DNA of 13,526 nt from a virus: the UHGV virus genome UHGV-1806156; one strand, 5' to 3'. The notes beneath the pieces were generated by a model, which was not told the DNA's origin, did not search any database, and worked only from the letters and a program-made list of their open reading frames with translations. Shown one piece after another: positions 99 through 13,428 of this stretch. A program made the position numbers and the translations under genes. Position 1 is the first letter of the stretch, and each line of letters begins with the position of its first letter.

Positions 99-437
99 GC
101 AGACTGTGATGATGTGACTTATATCTATGCGTATAACAGCCTCCGCTGTTTACGCTCTTTGTGTGGGTCCGGCGAATGCGTCAGCATGAGGCCCACAATG
201 TGGACCGCTGCCGAAAGCTTGCCAGCGCCGGAAGGAGGCAGCAAAGAGTCTCCCGCGCGCATGTGTGGGCGTATACGTAAGATATACATTCATAAATCCA
301 ATTCTAGGCCCATAAATGGCCTTCTGGCTGCATTAACTAGTGTGAGTAGTGCAATTGCATTACCTGACCTCTAAATCGCGTTAGAATTGATTTTAGAGCG
401 CCTAAGGCAAAAAGTGCTCTCCCTCCCTTGTGGGCCA

Positions 438-467
438 TTGACAATCTTATTGCATAAATGCTATAAG
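438..467 (+). promoter_or_regulatory. Sigma70-like promoter candidate (-35 TTGACA 438-443, 18-bp spacer, -10 TATAAG 462-467)
   Basis: Hexamers read directly; one of five ATTGACAAT-type sites in 437-765. Confidence 0.3.
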
Positions 468-566
468 TGATTTTGGTTTTGACACGGTAGGGGCCATTAA
501 TAATGCTTACCCCTTTGCTGTGGACTTGCTTGTACATATAGCATACCTAAATGATAATAATTCTCA

Positions 567-595
567 TTGACAATTGGTTGACAATATGATAAGAT
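567..595 (+). promoter_or_regulatory. Sigma70-like promoter candidate (-35 TTGACA 567-572, 17-bp spacer, -10 TAAGAT 590-595)
   Basis: Hexamers read directly; a second TTGACA at 578-583 overlaps it. Sits upstream of the sORF at 631. Confidence 0.3.
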
Positions 596-630
596 TATAA
601 ATAGGGGGAGAAACAGATCCGGAGGTCAAT

Positions 631-780
631 GTGGAAATTACTGATGCAATAGCGATCATCAACCTGGCTGTACTGTGGTGCGGTGTTGCCTACATAGCCG
701 GAGTGACTGCAATCGACAATCTTGAAGAAAAAATGATAGATAAATACAAAAAGATTGTTGACAATTTGACGAATGTCTGA
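631..780 (+). CDS. Small ORF, 49 aa, GTG start, predicted single transmembrane helix (VEITDAIAIINLAVLWCGVAYIAGVTAIDNLEEKMIDKYKKIVDNLTNV)
   Basis: GGAGG at 621-625 sits 5 nt before GTG 631, stop TGA at 778-780. Hydrophobic N-terminal stretch. Below the 60-aa cutoff of the ORF track. Confidence 0.3.
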   Translation: MEITDAIAIINLAVLWCGVAYIAGVTAIDNLEEKMIDKYKKIVDNLTNV

Positions 781-786
781 TAAAAT
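758..786 (+). promoter_or_regulatory. Sigma70-like promoter candidate (-35 TTGACA 758-763, 17-bp spacer, -10 TAAAAT 781-786), likely driving the operon starting at 913
   Basis: Near-consensus hexamers with 17-bp spacing, about 125 bp upstream of ATG 913. Confidence 0.45.
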
Positions 787-912
787 ATAAAGCATAGGGT
801 AATTCTCATCATAGTGAATTTCCTTTAGTAGACTGGCGGGGGCTTGTCTTAAGTTCCCGTTTCTTTTTAATCATATATCGCACAGGTTAGTGAGCTGACA
901 GGAGATTGAATC

Positions 913-2316: not shown

Positions 2317-2805
2317 ATGTTCAAATCTAATCTTTCTGATTCTCAATTCGAAAAACTGGTAGCACTGCAGAAATATCTTCCCAGTGATGATCAACCAACA
2401 CGACAGGCTAAACACTTATTAGTCGAGGGCTTTACCCCTGAATTCGTGGCGGAATATACAGGCGTTAAACTTGATAAAGTCCAAAAACTATATAATGAGT
2501 CCTGGAATCCACGGTGTCGAGTTCCCCTCAGTGTCTATAACGACATAGATAGAGATAAAAATGTCTTCGAAGATCGCCGCCGCAAATCTCTTTTAATGTG
2601 GAATTGTGGGATGAATATTGAAGAGATAGCAAAAGAATTAAAAGTAACCTGCTTTCATATATGGGGCTTGTTGAGTGAAATCCTGCCACGTAAGGAGCTT
2701 AATCAACGTTTGCCTAAGCCCGGTAGTCGTGCTTATCGCGAATTTATATTCATCTACCGCCGCCATAGAAATAAAGTCCAGAAAGCAATGGCCCAGAAAG
2801 CTTGA
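2317..2805 (+). CDS. Putative DNA-binding regulator with two HTH-like segments, 162 aa
   Basis: GGAGA RBS before ATG 2317. Two segments with HTH character: GFTPEFVAEYTGVKLDKVQKL and GMNIEEIAKELKVTCFHIWGLL. Confidence 0.5.
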   Translation: MFKSNLSDSQFEKLVALQKYLPSDDQPTRQAKHLLVEGFTPEFVAEYTGVKLDKVQKLYNESWNPRCRVPLSVYNDIDRDKNVFEDRRRKSLLMWNCGMNIEEIAKELKVTCFHIWGLLSEILPRKELNQRLPKPGSRAYREFIFIYRRHRNKVQKAMAQKA

Positions 2806-2878
2806 GTTTTATCTCTTCGATTTATTTATTTTCGACTCACTTTAACCCCTTCCGGGGCTCTAATTTAAGGAATTCCAA

Positions 2879-3322
2879 ATGTCTCAAATCGCTAAATTAT
2901 TATCCCAGGTTATCAAAGCTATCGACGCTGAAGATTCAAAAGTTCGCCAGGATCTTTTAGATGGCAAGTTTACCAACACCCTGGCATTTACCCGTGACAA
3001 AGAGCACTTCTTAAAACACAGGCATCACGCTTTTCCTGAATGCAAGTCCGCTAATGGTGATGTTTTCTATGTCGATTTGGTGGTTATGGCATGTAGGCTG
3101 TGGATGATTCAGGACCTTATGCGCCAACACGGTGATGATCCTCTTATCAGCATGTGGAACAGCGCCCAGGATGGCTTTGTGATTGCTGCCTTATCCAAAT
3201 CAATGATTGAGGCAGAAGGGGCAAGCCTTCAGAACATGGCAGATCTCTTTGAAATAAGCGTAGGAATGATGCAGACCATGCTCCAAGCTGTCAAACCTCT
3301 CAAACTGGTTAATCTTGATTAA
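2879..3322 (+). CDS. Hypothetical protein, 147 aa
   Basis: AAGGA RBS before ATG 2879; no recognisable family. Confidence 0.55.
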   Translation: MSQIAKLLSQVIKAIDAEDSKVRQDLLDGKFTNTLAFTRDKEHFLKHRHHAFPECKSANGDVFYVDLVVMACRLWMIQDLMRQHGDDPLISMWNSAQDGFVIAALSKSMIEAEGASLQNMADLFEISVGMMQTMLQAVKPLKLVNLD

Positions 3323-3382
3323 GCTATTGATAAATAAGCACTCCCCATTTTTTGGGGGGTGCATCAATGAGAGGATATGCCT

Positions 3383-3766
3383 ATGAATATTGAAGAAATG
3401 ATAGTTGAATTCGAAGAGGGTGATTTCCTGGAAGAAGGGGAGTTTAGTTACTCCCATTTTAAACAGGCGTTATTTAGCAGCGATGATAAACCACACGTTA
3501 GTGATCTTAACGACGATGATTTATGTCGTTGGGTATGCACCCGCTTAAATGAAGATGGAAAGTATACAGGCCAAAACTTTCCAAATCTCTATTTCAAAGC
3601 ACAAACATTTGAGGAAGGGCAAAGAGTGAAAAACCTGGTCGATAAAATGCTGTCAGCCGGATATTTGCATAAAGAATTATTAAATCCTAAAGCTGAAAGC
3701 AAGCGCCATTATATTTTTGTGTGGACTATTGGCGATAAGTGTCCACTAAGACGCAAAGGCAAATGA
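3383..3766 (+). CDS. Acidic protein, 127 aa; possible tail assembly chaperone by position
   Basis: GAGAGGA (3369-3375) is 7 nt before ATG 3383; the track's ATG 3377 is too close to the RBS. Acidic N-terminus and position two genes upstream of the tape measure gene. Function is positional inference only. Confidence 0.4.
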   Translation: MNIEEMIVEFEEGDFLEEGEFSYSHFKQALFSSDDKPHVSDLNDDDLCRWVCTRLNEDGKYTGQNFPNLYFKAQTFEEGQRVKNLVDKMLSAGYLHKELLNPKAESKRHYIFVWTIGDKCPLRRKGK

Positions 3767-3767
3767 T

Positions 3768-4004
3768 ATGAATACCTACGAAAAGATTTATCAAAAACTG
3801 GTTAAGGACTCCGAAGACACGCCCGAAGGGGTGACAGTAGGTCACCTGCCAGAGGCAGCGAAAGAGGGGGCCACCATTATTAAAAGTGGCTCCCACACAG
3901 AAGGCCTCTCAATCGAAGAGCTGGCGGAGAAATATAATATTGATAAAGAGGCCCTGAAAAGGGCTATTTCATTATCAAAATCTTTAAGACAGGGCGAGGT
4001 ATAA
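3768..4004 (+). CDS. Hypothetical protein, 78 aa, translationally coupled between the acidic protein and the tape measure gene
   Basis: Starts 1 nt after the preceding stop and ends 1 nt before ATG 4006. Confidence 0.45.
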   Translation: MNTYEKIYQKLVKDSEDTPEGVTVGHLPEAAKEGATIIKSGSHTEGLSIEELAEKYNIDKEALKRAISLSKSLRQGEV

Positions 4005-4005
4005 A

Positions 4006-6153
4006 ATGGCAATGAAGGAAGTAGCCAGACTAACAAACGTTATTTACTGGGACTCTGATAAATCCTCCTGGCGAAAAGAAGTTAAACGGCTTGAGGATTA
4101 TAAAAAATCCTGGAAGAAAGCTACCGACGATATAGCTAAAGCTGATTTTAAATCTAATCAGGCTGTGCTCAGAACACAAAGAACACGCGCTAAGGTGGAA
4201 GAGCAGATAGCCAGAGCTCAGAGGAAACAACAGGAAGCACAGAAGAAACAACGTGCTCAGGCTGTCAGCCGTCTGACCGGGGGCAACAATGCCGAACTTA
4301 ACTCTATGCGCAAGTTCTACCAACAACAAGCCAGAGAAGCCGCCAGACAACAAAAACTGTTAGATCGTAGTGTTGGAGATGTTCAGCACAGAAAAGCACG
4401 TGTAGGGGCCAACAGTGCACGAATCAGCAGCATGTTTGATGGCTCCCTGGTTGCTCAGTTCCAGGGGCGCATTCAAAGAGTTAATGCTGATTATGCTAAA
4501 GGGGCTATAAACCTGCAGACCTATAATCAGAGGATGGCCCGACTCAGATCTGAAATGAAGATGGCAACAGCCGAAGCCGGAAAATTCCAGAGCAGACTAG
4601 ACAGAGCTGCGGCCGCAGGCTCCAGGCTGCATGACAACCTGGGGAAACTGAATTCCACACTGGGCAAGATAGCCATTGGCCTTACTGCCGCTGGCTGGGG
4701 TGTTCAGCGTGCTGTTAGTGGTGCTATGGGTAGCCTTGCAGATCGCAACAGTGCTTATTTCGGCTTAATGTCACAGAACAAGGATGATAAATCAAAAACT
4801 GATCAGCAGATGGCTTTTATCAAGAACACAGCCTACACCTACGGGATGGATCAGCGTGAGATGGAAGGCGGCTACATGCGCTTTGCTGCAGCTACCCCCA
4901 CCATGAAGGAATCTGATAAGCAGGCTCTCTTTGAGGCTATGGCTATTAAAGGCCGCTCAGTGGGTGCTACTGGCGAGCAACAGAACAGGGCGCTTGTTGC
5001 GGTCCAACAAATGGCTTCAAAAAATAAAGTCATGGCGGAGGAGCTGCGTGGGCAGCTGGCAGAAGCCTTTGCAGGCTCACAACAGGACTTCCAACAGGCC
5101 GCTATTGATGCCGGAATCATCAAAAATACCCAGGAATTCGATAAAGCCCTTAAAGATGGCAAAATCACCCTGGACAAGCTACTTCCTTCCCTAGTGAAAA
5201 TTTGGGGTGCTGCAAAAGAAACTAAAGCTTTTGCTGAATCCATGAAACAGCCAGAAGTAGCAATGCAGCGCATGAAAAACAGCTTTAACGAGCTGGCGAT
5301 TCAGTTTATGGGTGTTGTGGATCCTGCGGATGGCGTTATTAGCTTATCTGAATCTCTGATCTCCATCTTTGAAGACCTCACCACTGATATGGACGGCAGC
5401 GGGAGCGCGGCAAAACAGTTCGGTGAGGCAGTCGGGTCTGCCATGCGTGAGATCATGTATTGGGTAGGCTTCGCTAAGGGATATATTGAGGTCAAGGCTA
5501 AAGAGTTCGGCATGACCGGATCAGAGGTTGGCGAGCTTATCGGGAAACTGGTAGTCGGCTTAGCTGGTCTGAAAGTTATTACCACACTGCTTTCCCCTCT
5601 AACCGGATTTGTTTCACTTGTCACCCAACTGATTTCTCTGATAGGCAAGATTCCAGGTCTGGGCAATCTCGTTAAGGGTGCTGGCGGGGCAGTCGCTGGA
5701 AGCCCAACAACAGCATTAGCCGCTGGCAGTGCCGCAGGTGTGGGTGTTGGTGTCGCTGGCGCACTAGGCGCTAAGACGGTAGGTGAGAAGTTCAGAGGAT
5801 GGATGCAAAGCAAGGCTGATCAGTTCGGGGAGTGGGCTAAATCTAAAGGCCTGCTTAGCGATGAACAGGACGCTATGACCAAACCGGGGGCCTATAACCA
5901 TAGCTACATCAACAAGGGAGCTTCCTTTAATCCATATCCAACCATTAGCCCTTCACGTCCTACTCCTAGCACTGGTACGGCTATTCAGAATGGCGGATAT
6001 CAACCAGTCCAAGTAAATGTAGCCCCACAAGGTGAGATTTCCGGCAAATGGGAGATAACCATCGATGAGGGGGGAATTGCCAGGGTGATCCAGAAGGAAG
6101 TTAGCGATCAGTTGGATTGGAAAGCCACACAGGAATCTAACCAGCTTTTCTAA
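4006..6153 (+). CDS. Phage tail tape measure protein-like, 715 aa
   Basis: Long Q/R/K/A-rich helical N-terminal region, a central segment that reads like a tape-measure domain (AAATPTMKESDKQALFEAMAIKGRSVGATGEQQNRALVAVQQMASKNKVMAEELRGQLAEAF), and a Gly/Ala-rich hydrophobic block (LAGLKVITTLLSPLTGFVSLVTQLISLIGKIPGLGNLVKGAGGAVAG...). Recognised by eye, not by search. Confidence 0.6.
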   Translation: MAMKEVARLTNVIYWDSDKSSWRKEVKRLEDYKKSWKKATDDIAKADFKSNQAVLRTQRTRAKVEEQIARAQRKQQEAQKKQRAQAVSRLTGGNNAELNSMRKFYQQQAREAARQQKLLDRSVGDVQHRKARVGANSARISSMFDGSLVAQFQGRIQRVNADYAKGAINLQTYNQRMARLRSEMKMATAEAGKFQSRLDRAAAAGSRLHDNLGKLNSTLGKIAIGLTAAGWGVQRAVSGAMGSLADRNSAYFGLMSQNKDDKSKTDQQMAFIKNTAYTYGMDQREMEGGYMRFAAATPTMKESDKQALFEAMAIKGRSVGATGEQQNRALVAVQQMASKNKVMAEELRGQLAEAFAGSQQDFQQAAIDAGIIKNTQEFDKALKDGKITLDKLLPSLVKIWGAAKETKAFAESMKQPEVAMQRMKNSFNELAIQFMGVVDPADGVISLSESLISIFEDLTTDMDGSGSAAKQFGEAVGSAMREIMYWVGFAKGYIEVKAKEFGMTGSEVGELIGKLVVGLAGLKVITTLLSPLTGFVSLVTQLISLIGKIPGLGNLVKGAGGAVAGSPTTALAAGSAAGVGVGVAGALGAKTVGEKFRGWMQSKADQFGEWAKSKGLLSDEQDAMTKPGAYNHSYINKGASFNPYPTISPSRPTPSTGTAIQNGGYQPVQVNVAPQGEISGKWEITIDEGGIARVIQKEVSDQLDWKATQESNQLF

Positions 6154-9765: not shown

Positions 9766-10093
9766 TTGATCACCTGCGATTTAAATTAACTCCCCTCAAA
9801 GGGCTCAGGTATAACCTCTCAAACCACGACAGGCTCGGGCCGAAAAGTTATGCCGGAAATCTAAAGGGGGATTGATATAAGGAGAGGGAGATAGCCCCGC
9901 ACCGTCCAAGCGGGGGCTATTCCACATGGGGAAACCAACAACAGTTGGCTGATAGTTCACTGCATGGTTACAGGTTGCTAGAGAGCACTATCACGAAAGG
10001 CACTCCCCCGGATCAGTTCAGGCTGCGGTCACATCAGCGGGGAAATACCTTTCGGGATAGCTACCCACACAGAAAACCCGCAAAAGAAAACTG

Positions 10094-10102
10094 TGTGGAT
10101 AA
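10094..10102 (-). promoter_or_regulatory. DnaA box (TTATCCACA on the minus strand) inside an inverted repeat (CCACACAG 10065-10072 / CTGTGTGG 10091-10098)
   Basis: Exact 9-mer match to the DnaA box consensus, read directly. Confidence 0.35.
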
Positions 10103-10248
10103 CTAGCCCTGTAGGGAGAATAAGGAGAATTAATCGACCACTCTAAGATGATCATGGGTAGTGTTATTTATAAGGCGGCACCGCTACCTGGTCGCCTTTA
10201 CTTTGGAGGAAAATACGGCAAATCACCTTCGCTAAATGATTCACGGTA

Positions 10249-10268
10249 TACTGTATATTATATCAGTA
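10249..10268. promoter_or_regulatory. LexA (SOS) box-like palindrome TACTGTATATTATATCAGTA
   Basis: CTG-N10-CAG architecture with flanking TA and an AT-rich core, as in gammaproteobacterial LexA boxes. Lies in the large intergenic region between the capsid operon and the small-peptide operon. Confidence 0.45.
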
Positions 10269-10546
10269 TTTACTCACATTGTCAACACCCTGATTATATA
10301 AATTCTAATAATTAGCGTAGTAACGGTATTTTCAGACTGCTATCAATCCCATCAATACGTCATCTCATCGCATCTATCATAACTTTTTCATTCGTGATAG
10401 ATATCTTTTGATCAATATCAATGTTTTCCGGGGATTTGCCCGGCTATAGTTCGAATCAAGGAAGGGGAGCATTGATAGAGACACCCAAAGGGGTGACTGA
10501 AAGTCACCTGGCATAGCCAGTGAAAGCACCCAACCGAACAAACAAA

Positions 10547-11722: not shown

Positions 11723-11750
11723 AGGGGGCCATCACGGCCCCTTTTTATTT
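11723..11750 (+). terminator. Rho-independent terminator after the signal-peptide gene
   Basis: GC-rich stem GGGGGCC (11724-11730) / GGCCCC (11736-11741) with 5-nt loop, followed by TTTTTATTT. Confidence 0.55.
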
Positions 11751-11800
11751 ATCCCCTATTTAACCCCTATTTAATGGGTATTTAATGCCTATTTATTGAT
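11746..11800. repeat. Five tandem 11-bp units of form TATTTAANNNN (helically phased A/T tracts)
   Basis: TATTTATCCCC, TATTTAACCCC, TATTTAATGGG, TATTTAATGCC, TATTTATTGAT read directly; an 11-bp period suggests bent DNA or phased binding sites. Confidence 0.5.
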
Positions 11801-13063
11801 TTAATCCGTTTTATGCCACAACCGCCCGGTTGACAGAGTAAGATAGAGTGTGTAACCCTCTTTCGTAATACCAATAAAATCAATAGTTTAGCTCAATTGG
11901 CCTTTTCTCTATTTTTGTCAAATTTAACATACCCTCAAAAACTGCAAAATCTGGCTGCAAGATTATCTGCAGCTGGATTTCTTGCGCCTCAATTTGTGGT
12001 ATCACCCTGACTAGTTTGTGCATAAATTGAACAGTTTTTAACATTTCCTCCTCACCTGGTAACCACACAAAAAGCTAAAAACGAGGCACAGATAATCTTA
12101 GAGGCCTGTTTTCTTGTTATCACTCTGGTAACGTCGTAGAAGTGATTTTGATGAAAGATGACCTACCCTATTACACCCCCATTTTTTGTTATCACAATTG
12201 CATCCTGTGCGGTGTATGGCTATGTGCTGAAAGCGGTCTTATGTGTGGGTGTCAGAAATATCCATTAGCGGTATTAATACCCGTCGGAGATTCGTCTGAG
12301 GTGCCAGGCAGGCGCTCCCCCACCTCCCTTTTTTCTTCTAACAATTCTCAAATATCACACCACTGCCCACCACGTTGCTATTATGTTAATTCTTAAGCTT
12401 TGCTGTATGTTGTGCACATTATTTATTCAGGTGGCTGTACGTAAATTCTGTGCCCACTGATCATGATTTTTAAATCAGATTTTGTAGTGCGCTTTATTAG
12501 TGTAGATAAGATCTATTATGTTAAATGCATCTCTCTCAACACTTAAAATCAATGACTTAGAGGTTAGGATGCACTAACACCCCACACAGCACATTAGACA
12601 TATAGATGTCTATACCCCACATTTTTGATTGTTTTGTAGTCATTCCCCTGATCATTTAACCAGTATAGTTTGCTCCCTGCAGACCACAAAATCGGAATTT
12701 ACATCTGATTAACATAATCTGTTAGCATGATCACCATTACCCACACAACAATAACCACATGTAAGCCTCTTCAGGCAATTTATCGGCGTGTTGGTGTGAA
12801 CAGTCTTTCATGTTCTTTATGTATTCATTGTCCTGTGTGAGGGAAGGATGGACTGCCCCAGGGGCCATACTTATGATGCCCGGTCAACATACCTGTCGAT
12901 AAAATCAAAGGGTGTTGATCTGCATATTTCCCACACATGAGAGGAAATCAAAGCAAAGAGAGAGGAGAGAGGTTTGTTAGTCAAAATAGGTCAATAAGGG
13001 TGTATTTCCACACAGACATGATGAGATAACCTGTCGGTATTTCCTACAACTCTTGCACATACC

Positions 13064-13341
13064 CCGGAAGATTTTTCCGGTGTCTCCCACCTGTGAAGAA
13101 TTTTCACACCTGTAAATCCATACAGCACGGTAAAAACTACCGCACCACCTGTGAAAATATTTTACTACTCCCTTTAGTCATACCCCTTTCAGTCATACTC
13201 AGGCACCACACCCCGGTAAATATTTCCCTACCACCCCGGAGAATTTCTCCGGTGTCCAAGCTGTATCCAATACATACCCCGGAAAATTTCTCCGCACTAC
13301 TACGGAAGATTTCTCCGGTGTACCCCGGAAGATTTCTCCGA
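13064..13341. repeat. Iteron-like array of at least 8 copies of a 17-bp quasi-palindrome (consensus about CCGGARRATTTCTCCGG)
   Basis: Copies at 13064-13080, 13236-13252 (perfect palindrome CCGGAGAATTTCTCCGG), 13279-13295, 13302-13318 and 13325-13341, the last three spaced exactly 23 bp apart. Related variants at about 13094-13108, 13150-13164 and 13214-13226. Confidence 0.6.
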
Positions 13342-13428
13342 CTAATAAATAAAGTAATAGACCACACAATAGATCCCCCCTAACCCCCAAGGGGAATGGG
13401 GAGGGATCAGAGAGTGGGGAAGGTTTTC

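Follow-up and report, generated by a model that had tools for sequence, protein, structure and literature searches.

Five copies of a nine-nucleotide element, ATTGACAAT or a one-mismatch variant of it, lie on one strand around a small open reading frame (ORF), and the question that they raise is whether they represent a set of redundant strong promoters or an operator set for a regulator. We analysed the locus in the context of the whole available stretch of 13 526 nucleotides (hereafter the window). The first 96 bases of the window recur at its end with one mismatch, indicating a circular element of ∼13 430 bp whose ends overlap in the window, and near-identical plasmids of 13.2–13.7 kb were found in 7 of 5426 complete E. 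coli genomes (one of the seven plasmid records is 39.6 kb long and contains the unit three times). Judging from the sequences compared here, the repeat is probably in the main the −35 box of near-consensus sigma-70 promoters. As an explanation of the locus as a whole, we consider it likely that three such promoters (P1, P2 and P3) together with a downstream terminator form the early control region of the plasmid.

Distribution of the repeat and the predicted promoters that contain it

A 9-mer search of the window located exact copies of ATTGACAAT at 437–445 and 566–574 and one-mismatch copies at 577–585 (GTTGACAAT), 712–720 (ATCGACAAT) and 757–765 (GTTGACAAT), all on the plus strand, with distances of 129, 11, 135 and 45 bp between successive sites. 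A sixth copy of the motif (GTTGACAAT) was found at 10278–10286 on the minus strand. All five sites listed in the sequence-only reading therefore exist, but the one placed at 578 starts at 577 and the sixth copy on the opposite strand had been missed. Because the 9-mer is near-palindromic, the copies at 437 and 566 score on the minus strand as well.

The five same-strand copies within 350 bp form the densest 9-mer cluster of the window, and five copies of any 9-mer within 350 bp were obtained in 8 of 300 whole-window shuffles and in 4 of 2000 local shuffles. In the entire window, the number of 9-mer matches was unremarkable (9 versus 5.3 expected, with 9 or more in 22 of 200 shuffles). The cluster could be attributed to chance in AT-rich DNA combined with coding constraint, no more than one of the sites being a genuine promoter, since the window-wide count was not significant, the cluster test that disregards the motif was only moderately significant, and the copy at 712 is a coding coincidence (see below). 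We regard this explanation as very unlikely, given that three of the sites are followed by a correctly spaced and conserved TGn-extended −10 while their spacers diverge, and that the plus strand has four exact copies of the 8-mer TTGACAAT, all of them within this cluster, where 0.4 per strand were expected. Similarly, five of the six plus-strand copies of TTGACA fall in 438–763 (∼0.1 expected within 330 bp).

The three sites in question are each the start of a predicted promoter on the plus strand. P1 (438–467) consists of the −35 hexamer TTGACA at 438–443, an 18-bp spacer, TGc at 459–461 and the −10 hexamer TATAAG at 462–467. P2 (567–595) has TTGACA at 567–572, a 17-bp spacer, TGa at 587–589 and TAAGAT at 590–595, and P3 (758–786) has TTGACA at 758–763, a 17-bp spacer, TGA at 778–780 in the position of TGn and TAAAAT at 781–786. 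The minus-strand copy heads a fourth promoter, P(−)10285 (10257–10285), in which TTGACA is followed after 17 bp by TATAAT with a preceding TGa, and which reads towards the capsid operon. The −35 hexamer matches TTGACA at 6 of 6 positions in all of the four (438, 567, 758 and 10285 on the minus strand), and TGn stands directly before each −10 (TGc, TGa, TGa and TGa, respectively), so that the set has a shared design of (A/G/C)TTGACAAT, N12–13, TGn and TAnnAT.

In a promoter scan, P(−)10285, P3 and P2 were the top three matches in the whole window, with scores of 12/12, 11/12 and 10/12, respectively, all with TG. A −10 element with A2 and T6 at a distance of 16–18 bp is present in these three promoters and in part in P1, where the distance is 18 bp and TATAAG does not end in the T that is usually critical. 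P1 was read from the sequence by eye, and the scanner rejects it because its −10 ends in G. Transcription would start at ∼474 from P1, ∼602 from P2 and ∼793 from P3, and all three promoters are predicted to be strong.

The sequence-only reading had assigned three of the five copies to −35 elements of plausible promoters and had described the other two as lacking a −10. Both statements agree with our results: P1, P2 and P3 have the appropriate geometry and conservation, and the sites at 577 and 712 have no matching partner at 16–18 bp. The five copies are not instances of one element: three belong to promoters, one is an orphan hexamer and one is a coincidence of coding sequence. An additional TTGACA hexamer is located on the plus strand at 479–484 in the early transcribed region of P1; it is kept in 6 of 6 complete plasmids, and in our reading of the sequence no −10 with A2 and T6 follows it at 16–18 bp.

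Conservation among related plasmids and the operator alternative

For the comparison, 36 related loci were gathered from complete plasmids and from contigs encoding the peptide, which together with the window gave 30 distinct versions of positions 371–930; these relatives are ∼85–99% identical and recombining, and the conservation that they reveal is therefore of limited power. The DNA of this region had no relatives in phages or in plasmids outside the E. coli family.

Among the 30 variants, 5–8 positions change in the spacers of P1, P2 and P3 at a fixed length, and the −35 and extended −10 elements are invariant or nearly so. P1 sits in an optional cassette of ∼90 bp and is present in 27 of the 30 variants (missing from L003, L004 and L006). 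Its TTGACAA is invariant and is preceded by A (14 variants) or C (13 variants). As the −10, 24 variants have TATAAG and the other 3 TATAAA; at least six positions vary in the spacer of constant length, and immediately before the −35 the DNA exists in at least five unrelated versions. P2 has kept its two hexamers and its TG unchanged in 30/30, with AAT in 14 and ATT in 16 as the tail of the 9-mer; a Fur-like box was noted at 552–566, next to this promoter. P3 retains GTTGACAAT in 30/30 and has the −10 TAAAAT in 29 and TATAAT in 1, with six varying spacer positions and again a fixed length. P(−)10285 is kept in 6 of 6 complete plasmids with three changes in the spacer. The conserved core among the 30 relatives is thus the hexamer TTGACA and not the 9-mer frame. 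Retention of the hexamers and their spacing with free variation elsewhere is the footprint of sigma-70 promoters, and the proposal of redundant strong promoters was borne out in that the hexamers and TG are kept in the relatives as the spacers diverge at fixed length.

A second TTGACA-type site at P2, at 577–585 on the plus strand, begins 11 bp after the start of the preceding copy and lies inside the P2 spacer. Its sequence is GTTGACAAT in 8, GTTGACAGT in 15, GTTGTCAAT in 6 and CTTGACAAG in 1 of the 30 variants. A −10 partner was sought and none was present at 16–18 bp in any of 11 variants. In the variants with TTGTCA, the opposite strand reads TTGACA-16-AATCAT (L047). Conservation of the TTGACA at 578 exceeds that of the remaining P2 spacer; the site is an orphan −35-like hexamer in that spacer, outside the promoter signal.

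The site at 712–720 (ATCGACAAT, plus strand) covers codons Ile28-Asp29-Asn30 of the peptide, and its hexamer reads TCGACA. In 21 of the 30 variants it is ATCGACAAC and in 9 it is ATCGACAAT (ending in AAT), a synonymous wobble, and the codon that follows wobbles as well (CTT, CTG, CTC or CTA). From this pattern of codon variation, site 712 is a coding coincidence and not a constrained DNA site. We also considered the junction of a phage recombinant (L011) as evidence for counting site 712 as part of the P3 unit and discarded it, the junction being an 8-bp microhomology.

A near-invariant, A-tract-rich block on the plus strand at 724–765 comprises an UP-like region and the P3 −35, and its invariance includes wobble positions: only 1 of 14 third positions varies in 724–765, versus 19 of 31 in 631–723 (Fisher p = 0.0009). 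This invariance fits an A-tract-rich upstream element together with the P3 −35, and could partly reflect a recent spread of the segment.

These data bear on the alternative that RTTGACAAT, a quasi-palindrome of the form ATTGnCAAT, is the operator of a regulator, encoded by the plasmid or by a helper, that binds over the −35 boxes and co-represses P1, P2, P3 and the capsid promoter. In its favour, the AAT following the hexamer is kept at P1 in 26/27, at P3 in 30/30 and at P(−)10285 in 6/6, a conservation beyond the hexamer that exceeds the known requirement of sigma-70; moreover, the two copies at P2, 11 bp apart, lie on the same helix face, and a plasmid that is maintained would plausibly have to restrain four consensus promoters. 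A search for a repressor gene in Pfam, PHROG and NCBIfam gave no CI/Cro-type match, and no CI/Cro-like gene is adjacent to the cluster; the plasmid does encode two small candidate HTH proteins, one of 86 aa matching HTH_7 and one of 162 aa with a weak match to HTH_40.

However, the palindrome is broken at P1 by CTTGACAAT in 13 of 27 variants and at P2 by ATTGACATT and GTTGACAGT in 15–16 of 30, and at nine base pairs the site would be small for the operator of a dimeric HTH protein. Unlike in repressor arrays of the lambdoid OR/OL or P1 C1 type, no site of at least 14 bp is conserved over its full length, only the hexamer being kept with varying flanks, and the sites share no dyad longer than ATTGnCAAT. 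Nor are sites conserved apart from promoter elements; those without a −10 (577 and 712) are the least conserved of the set. The palindromic operator consensus that the sequence-only reading had suggested looking for did not emerge either, as the inverted and direct repeats in 380–930 are only 8–15 bp long, AT-rich and of a size expected by chance. With a varying 9-mer frame, varying sites at 577 and 712, no longer dyad and no consistent change with the rep module, the operator half of the original proposal was not sustained. We retain operator function as an unlikely explanation, because the AAT tail, the second hexamer at 578 and the invariance of 724–765 remain.

The extended motif can be compared with the promoters trp, tac and trc. 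Their −35 region is GAGCTGTTGACAATTAATCAT, and that of trc and tac contains GTTGACAATT, which acts in Ptrc as a plain −35 region and requires no factor at that sequence (PMC3922697). The identical 10-mer GTTGACAATT is found at the P3 −35, and TTGACAAT is shared by P1, P2 and P(−)10285, which argues that the 8–9-mer is simply a good −35 context. The trc promoter differs in that its −10, TATAAT, has no TGn extension, and the operators of trc, tac and trp (lacO and trpO) are located elsewhere. The resemblance has no bearing on common descent.

The membrane-peptide gene, its leader and the replication operon

The ORF amid the cluster encodes a 49-aa single-pass membrane peptide (621–780 on the plus strand, with the Shine–Dalgarno (SD) sequence GGAGG at 621–625, 5 bp ahead of the ORF, and codons from GTG at 631 to TGA ending at 780). 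The same ORF is annotated by RefSeq in relatives (WP_157794903.1). Variation in the gene is concentrated at third positions (22/50, versus 18/100 at first and second positions), the gene starts with GTG in 15 variants and with ATG in the other 15, and the nine protein variants differ by conservative changes. One transmembrane (TM) helix is predicted, with a maximum Kyte–Doolittle hydropathy over 19 residues of 2.18 at residues 7–25. On the combined evidence of the strong SD, the wobble-biased variation, the predicted TM helix and the RefSeq annotation, the ORF is a real gene, as the sequence-only reading had predicted, of membrane type and at 631–780. No match was found in Pfam, PHROG or NCBIfam, and no homologues were found outside this plasmid family.

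The gene is shared with two of the repeat copies, both in frame with the peptide: site 712 encodes Ile-Asp-Asn and site 757 Val-Asp-Asn. The −35 of P3 overlaps codons Val43-Asp44-Asn45, and the TGA stop codon of the peptide doubles as the TGn of P3, so that one promoter is built into the last codons and the stop of the gene.

The segment downstream of P3 (793–871 on the plus strand) would serve as the P3 leader and as the 3′ untranslated region of the peptide mRNA. It contains a 5′ hairpin at approximately 796–826, whose pairing is preserved despite changes in L036 and L040, followed by a predicted strong intrinsic terminator with a 12-pair stem at 835–861, TCTTTTT and a T-run at 862–871. Rfam searches gave nothing near the gathering score, and no tRNA was found. 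An unrelated leader type (type B, carried by L008 and 14 further variants) has a terminator GC hairpin and T-run at the same place; its replacement sequence begins right after the P3 −10, and the relatives that carry it also have a diverged small-gene and rep module. The presence of a terminator in two unrelated leader types indicates a conserved design feature between P3 and the rep operon.

A short structured RNA from a promoter nested in a small hydrophobic-peptide gene raises another alternative, that the peptide is a type I toxin-like stabiliser of the plasmid and one of the nested promoters produces its regulatory RNA. A plasmid-encoded 49-aa single-TM peptide preceded by a strong promoter, together with a structured RNA predicted from P3, would suit a hok/sok-like module, for which the small hydrophobic peptide is indeed present. 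The P3 RNA is co-directional with the gene and overlaps neither its coding part nor its SD, which means that it is not antisense, and matches to an antisense promoter were weak (9/12 at best). Neither an antisense RNA nor similarity to known toxin families (Pfam, PHROG and NCBIfam) was found, nor any Rfam match, and we consider a toxin module highly improbable.

Downstream of the terminator on the plus strand, the first gene (913–1128) encodes a 71-aa protein and is followed by the replication initiator gene rep (1142–2038). Rep matched HTH_36 in Pfam (2.3e-07) and replication initiation and O-like families in PHROG (down to 9e-11), and is by these profile matches a lambda-O-like replication initiator. 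The 71-aa protein is restricted to the plasmid family, and AF2 gave it an all-helical model (pLDDT 87) that had no significant fold match in the PDB. As a candidate regulator it was set aside, having no sequence match in Pfam, PHROG, NCBIfam or the PDB and no fold match. Six 23-bp iterons (TACCCCGGAAGATTTCTCCGGTG, with a spacing of 23 bp) were found at 13060–13349, ∼520 bp upstream of the repeat region, which places that region between the probable origin and the rep operon.

This location invites the explanation that the repeats are initiator-binding sites for autoregulation of the operon by the O-like Rep or by the 71-aa protein. Besides the position between the iteron array and rep, a correlation of the P2 variants with the type of leader/rep module speaks for it. 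The 23-bp sequence of the actual iterons, TACCCCGGAAGATTTCTCCGGTG, bears no likeness to ATTGACAAT, however, and positions 437–787 contain no regular direct repeats of 17–23 bp that match the origin. Furthermore, TTGACAAT is kept at P1 and P3 whichever type of rep module is present, the correlation at P2 fails in one variant (L010), and the capsid-operon promoter, far from rep, is headed by the same motif. Covariation with the rep-module type, tracked by P2 and not by P1 and P3 and with L010 as an exception, was read as linkage, and we assign Rep binding a very low probability.

Under the promoter reading, 437–787 would be the early/replication control region of the circular E. coli plasmid. 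P1 would produce a long-leader transcript, P2 would drive the 49-aa membrane-peptide gene, and P3, set in the final eight codons of the peptide gene and in its stop codon, would produce a structured leader of ∼80 nt. All three transcripts would run into the intrinsic terminator at 835–871, where the peptide mRNA and the majority of P3 transcripts probably end. Since every transcript would meet this terminator, expression of the rep operon, that is, of the 71-aa gene, rep and the genes beyond, would depend on read-through. The promoters and the terminator are a likely control point for the replication of a widespread family of 13–14-kb E. coli plasmids. For the motif itself little changes, apart from the probable early promoters having been located, the peptide gene recognised as real and one promoter traced to its last codons and stop.

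Nature of the host element and comparison with known systems

The host element, a plasmid family related to rV5-like phages, is in our view of more interest than the motif. In its relatives, RefSeq annotates major capsid, tape measure and baseplate proteins; PHROG agrees and adds a tail-completion protein. No terminase or portal was recognisable in the plasmid family, and the plasmid capsid had no match in viral contigs. The family has recombined with an rV5-like virulent phage, and our literature search found no paper describing it.

A speculative and rather improbable extension is that the four TTGACAAT...TGnTAnnAT promoters act as a co-ordinated switch of a plasmid-borne satellite of virulent rV5-like phages. 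Its promoters would be constitutively loaded, and their output would be held back by the leader terminators, by a factor binding the 8–9-mer or by both, and released by antitermination or de-repression from the helper phage, turning on replication and the capsid and tail genes. If the family is such a phage satellite, control by the helper would act at the region described here. As a separate candidate, GTGTGGG/CCACACA was examined as a genome-wide motif of the helper phage and dropped, as 100 kb of phage nom showed no enrichment of it; a local cluster of it at 62–65 kb was unconvincing.

Two well-studied systems resemble the combination of a strong promoter and an early terminator. At lambda PR′–tR′, a constitutive late promoter produces a short 6S transcript that stops at a terminator until Q antiterminates. 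The plasmid similarly has a consensus-like promoter and a strong intrinsic terminator within ∼80–200 nt that gates a long operon, which suggests by analogy that antitermination may operate in the plasmid leader; it differs in that we identified neither a Q-binding element nor a homologue of Q nor a sigma-dependent pause element in the plasmid. The satellite phage-plasmid P4 uses the PLE promoter and RNA-mediated premature termination. It is likewise a small E. coli element capable of existing as a plasmid and carrying phage-related genes, in which early/replication transcription from a constitutive promoter ends prematurely in the leader, but it has no sequence or protein similarity to the plasmid and its structural genes differ.

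For the stacking of the promoters, the closest arrangement is that of phage T7, in which A1, A2 and A3 are three tandem promoters for E. coli RNA polymerase at the left genome end. Both begin the early region with three strong co-directional promoters for the host polymerase at distances of ∼125–190 bp, and all of them feed one terminator-bounded transcription unit. The plasmid differs from T7 in having a promoter inside a small gene and the terminator before the main operon and not after it, and the two share no homology. Stacked strong sigma-70 promoters heading an early/replication region are a well-known arrangement, of which this locus is a fresh example, with the overlap of promoter and coding sequence and the terminator gate as its distinctive touches.

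A plasmid family with rV5-like structural genes

The element in the window, a circle of ∼13,430 bp, is a member of a widespread E. coli/Shigella plasmid family of 13–14 kb (relatives L001 and L044–L047), on which no paper was found in a literature search. The family carries genes for a major capsid protein, a tape measure, baseplate-like proteins and tail completion, while no terminase, portal or integrase was recognisable on its plasmids. The top phage matches of the capsid were major head proteins of the Vequintavirinae, the rV5-like phages (24.8% identity over 97%), and the best-coverage matches of the tape measure were likewise rV5-like. This gene content and these capsid and tape-measure matches together suggest that the element is a plasmid-borne satellite or a relative of virulent rV5-like phages.

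The capsid operon is preceded by a perfect consensus promoter at 10285 on the − strand, followed by an untranslated leader of ∼480 nt (9766–10256) and the first ORF of the operon (9765). Several GC hairpins and a perfect DnaA box, TTATCCACA (+ strand 10092–10100, read on the − strand), were found within this leader. Elsewhere, the terminator of a 195-aa gene (11723–11743) immediately precedes about four 11-bp tandem repeats (TATTTAACCCC / CCTATTTAATG) at 11746–11795.

A 38-kb Logan contig (ERR13318355; L011) consists of rV5-like phage DNA with 99% identity to phage nom and holds at 2673–4083 a 1.4-kb insert with 96% identity to the plasmid family. The insert starts just upstream of the TTGACA-like site 712 and spans the promoter P3, its leader and terminator, genes for 69-aa and 121-aa proteins and the first part of rep, and its left junction is an 8-bp microhomology, TAACTGCA. 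This contig is a phage-plasmid recombinant; the recombinant was present in two sequencing runs (L011 and also L012).

A repeated heptamer, iterons and mosaic non-coding DNA

Non-coding sequence makes up ∼1/3 of the element, and by far the most enriched motif of the window was the heptamer CCACACA / TGTGTGG, which occurs in 20 copies against 1.3 expected, 14 of them in this non-coding third. The related counts were 11 copies against 0.33 expected for CCCACACA and 14 against 1.0 for GTGTGGG, the latter being reached in none of 200 shuffles. Within 1–630 the heptamers are spaced by ∼100 bp. Example copies are located at 64, 161, 263, 428, 518 and 12243 on the + strand and at 12581, 12740, 12930, 13007, 10064 and 10623 on the − strand, the orientation switching near an array of six 23-bp iterons (TACCCCGGAAGATTTCTCCGGTG) at 13060–13349. 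Four of the six iterons are in a tandem register of 23 bp and each contains an internal inverted repeat; the array is probably the replication origin. No genome-wide enrichment of the heptamer was found in phage nom.

Two TGTGGRC copies (428–434 and 518–524) flank a cassette at 428–526 that carries the inferred promoter P1. The cassette is absent with clean edges in one related locus (L003) and its position is occupied by different sequence in two others (L004 and L006), and the non-coding stretch that precedes P1 is mosaic, occurring in five or more versions unrelated to one another. The TGTGG motif looks like a likely site of recombination.

Candidate control elements around P2 and the P3 leader

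Directly adjoining the −35 element of the inferred promoter P2, TGATAATAATTCTCA (552–566) differs at one position from the Fur 7-1-7 box, TGATAATnATTATCA. Because its second half-site has two or three mismatches in several other variants of the P2 region, iron control of the 49-aa peptide gene (631–780) via this Fur-like box is only a lead. The TTGACA-like site at 577 reads GTTGTCAAT in L047 and five other variants, which places TTGACA-16-AATCAT (10/12) on the − strand at the equivalent of 557–584, a possible divergent promoter directed back to the non-coding region.

Downstream, in the predicted fold of the read-through transcript (793–930), the conserved P3 leader segment UUUCCUUU (818–826) pairs with the region around the Shine-Dalgarno sequence (897–911) of the 71-aa gene, and this predicted pairing may possibly add a layer of translational control to that gene.
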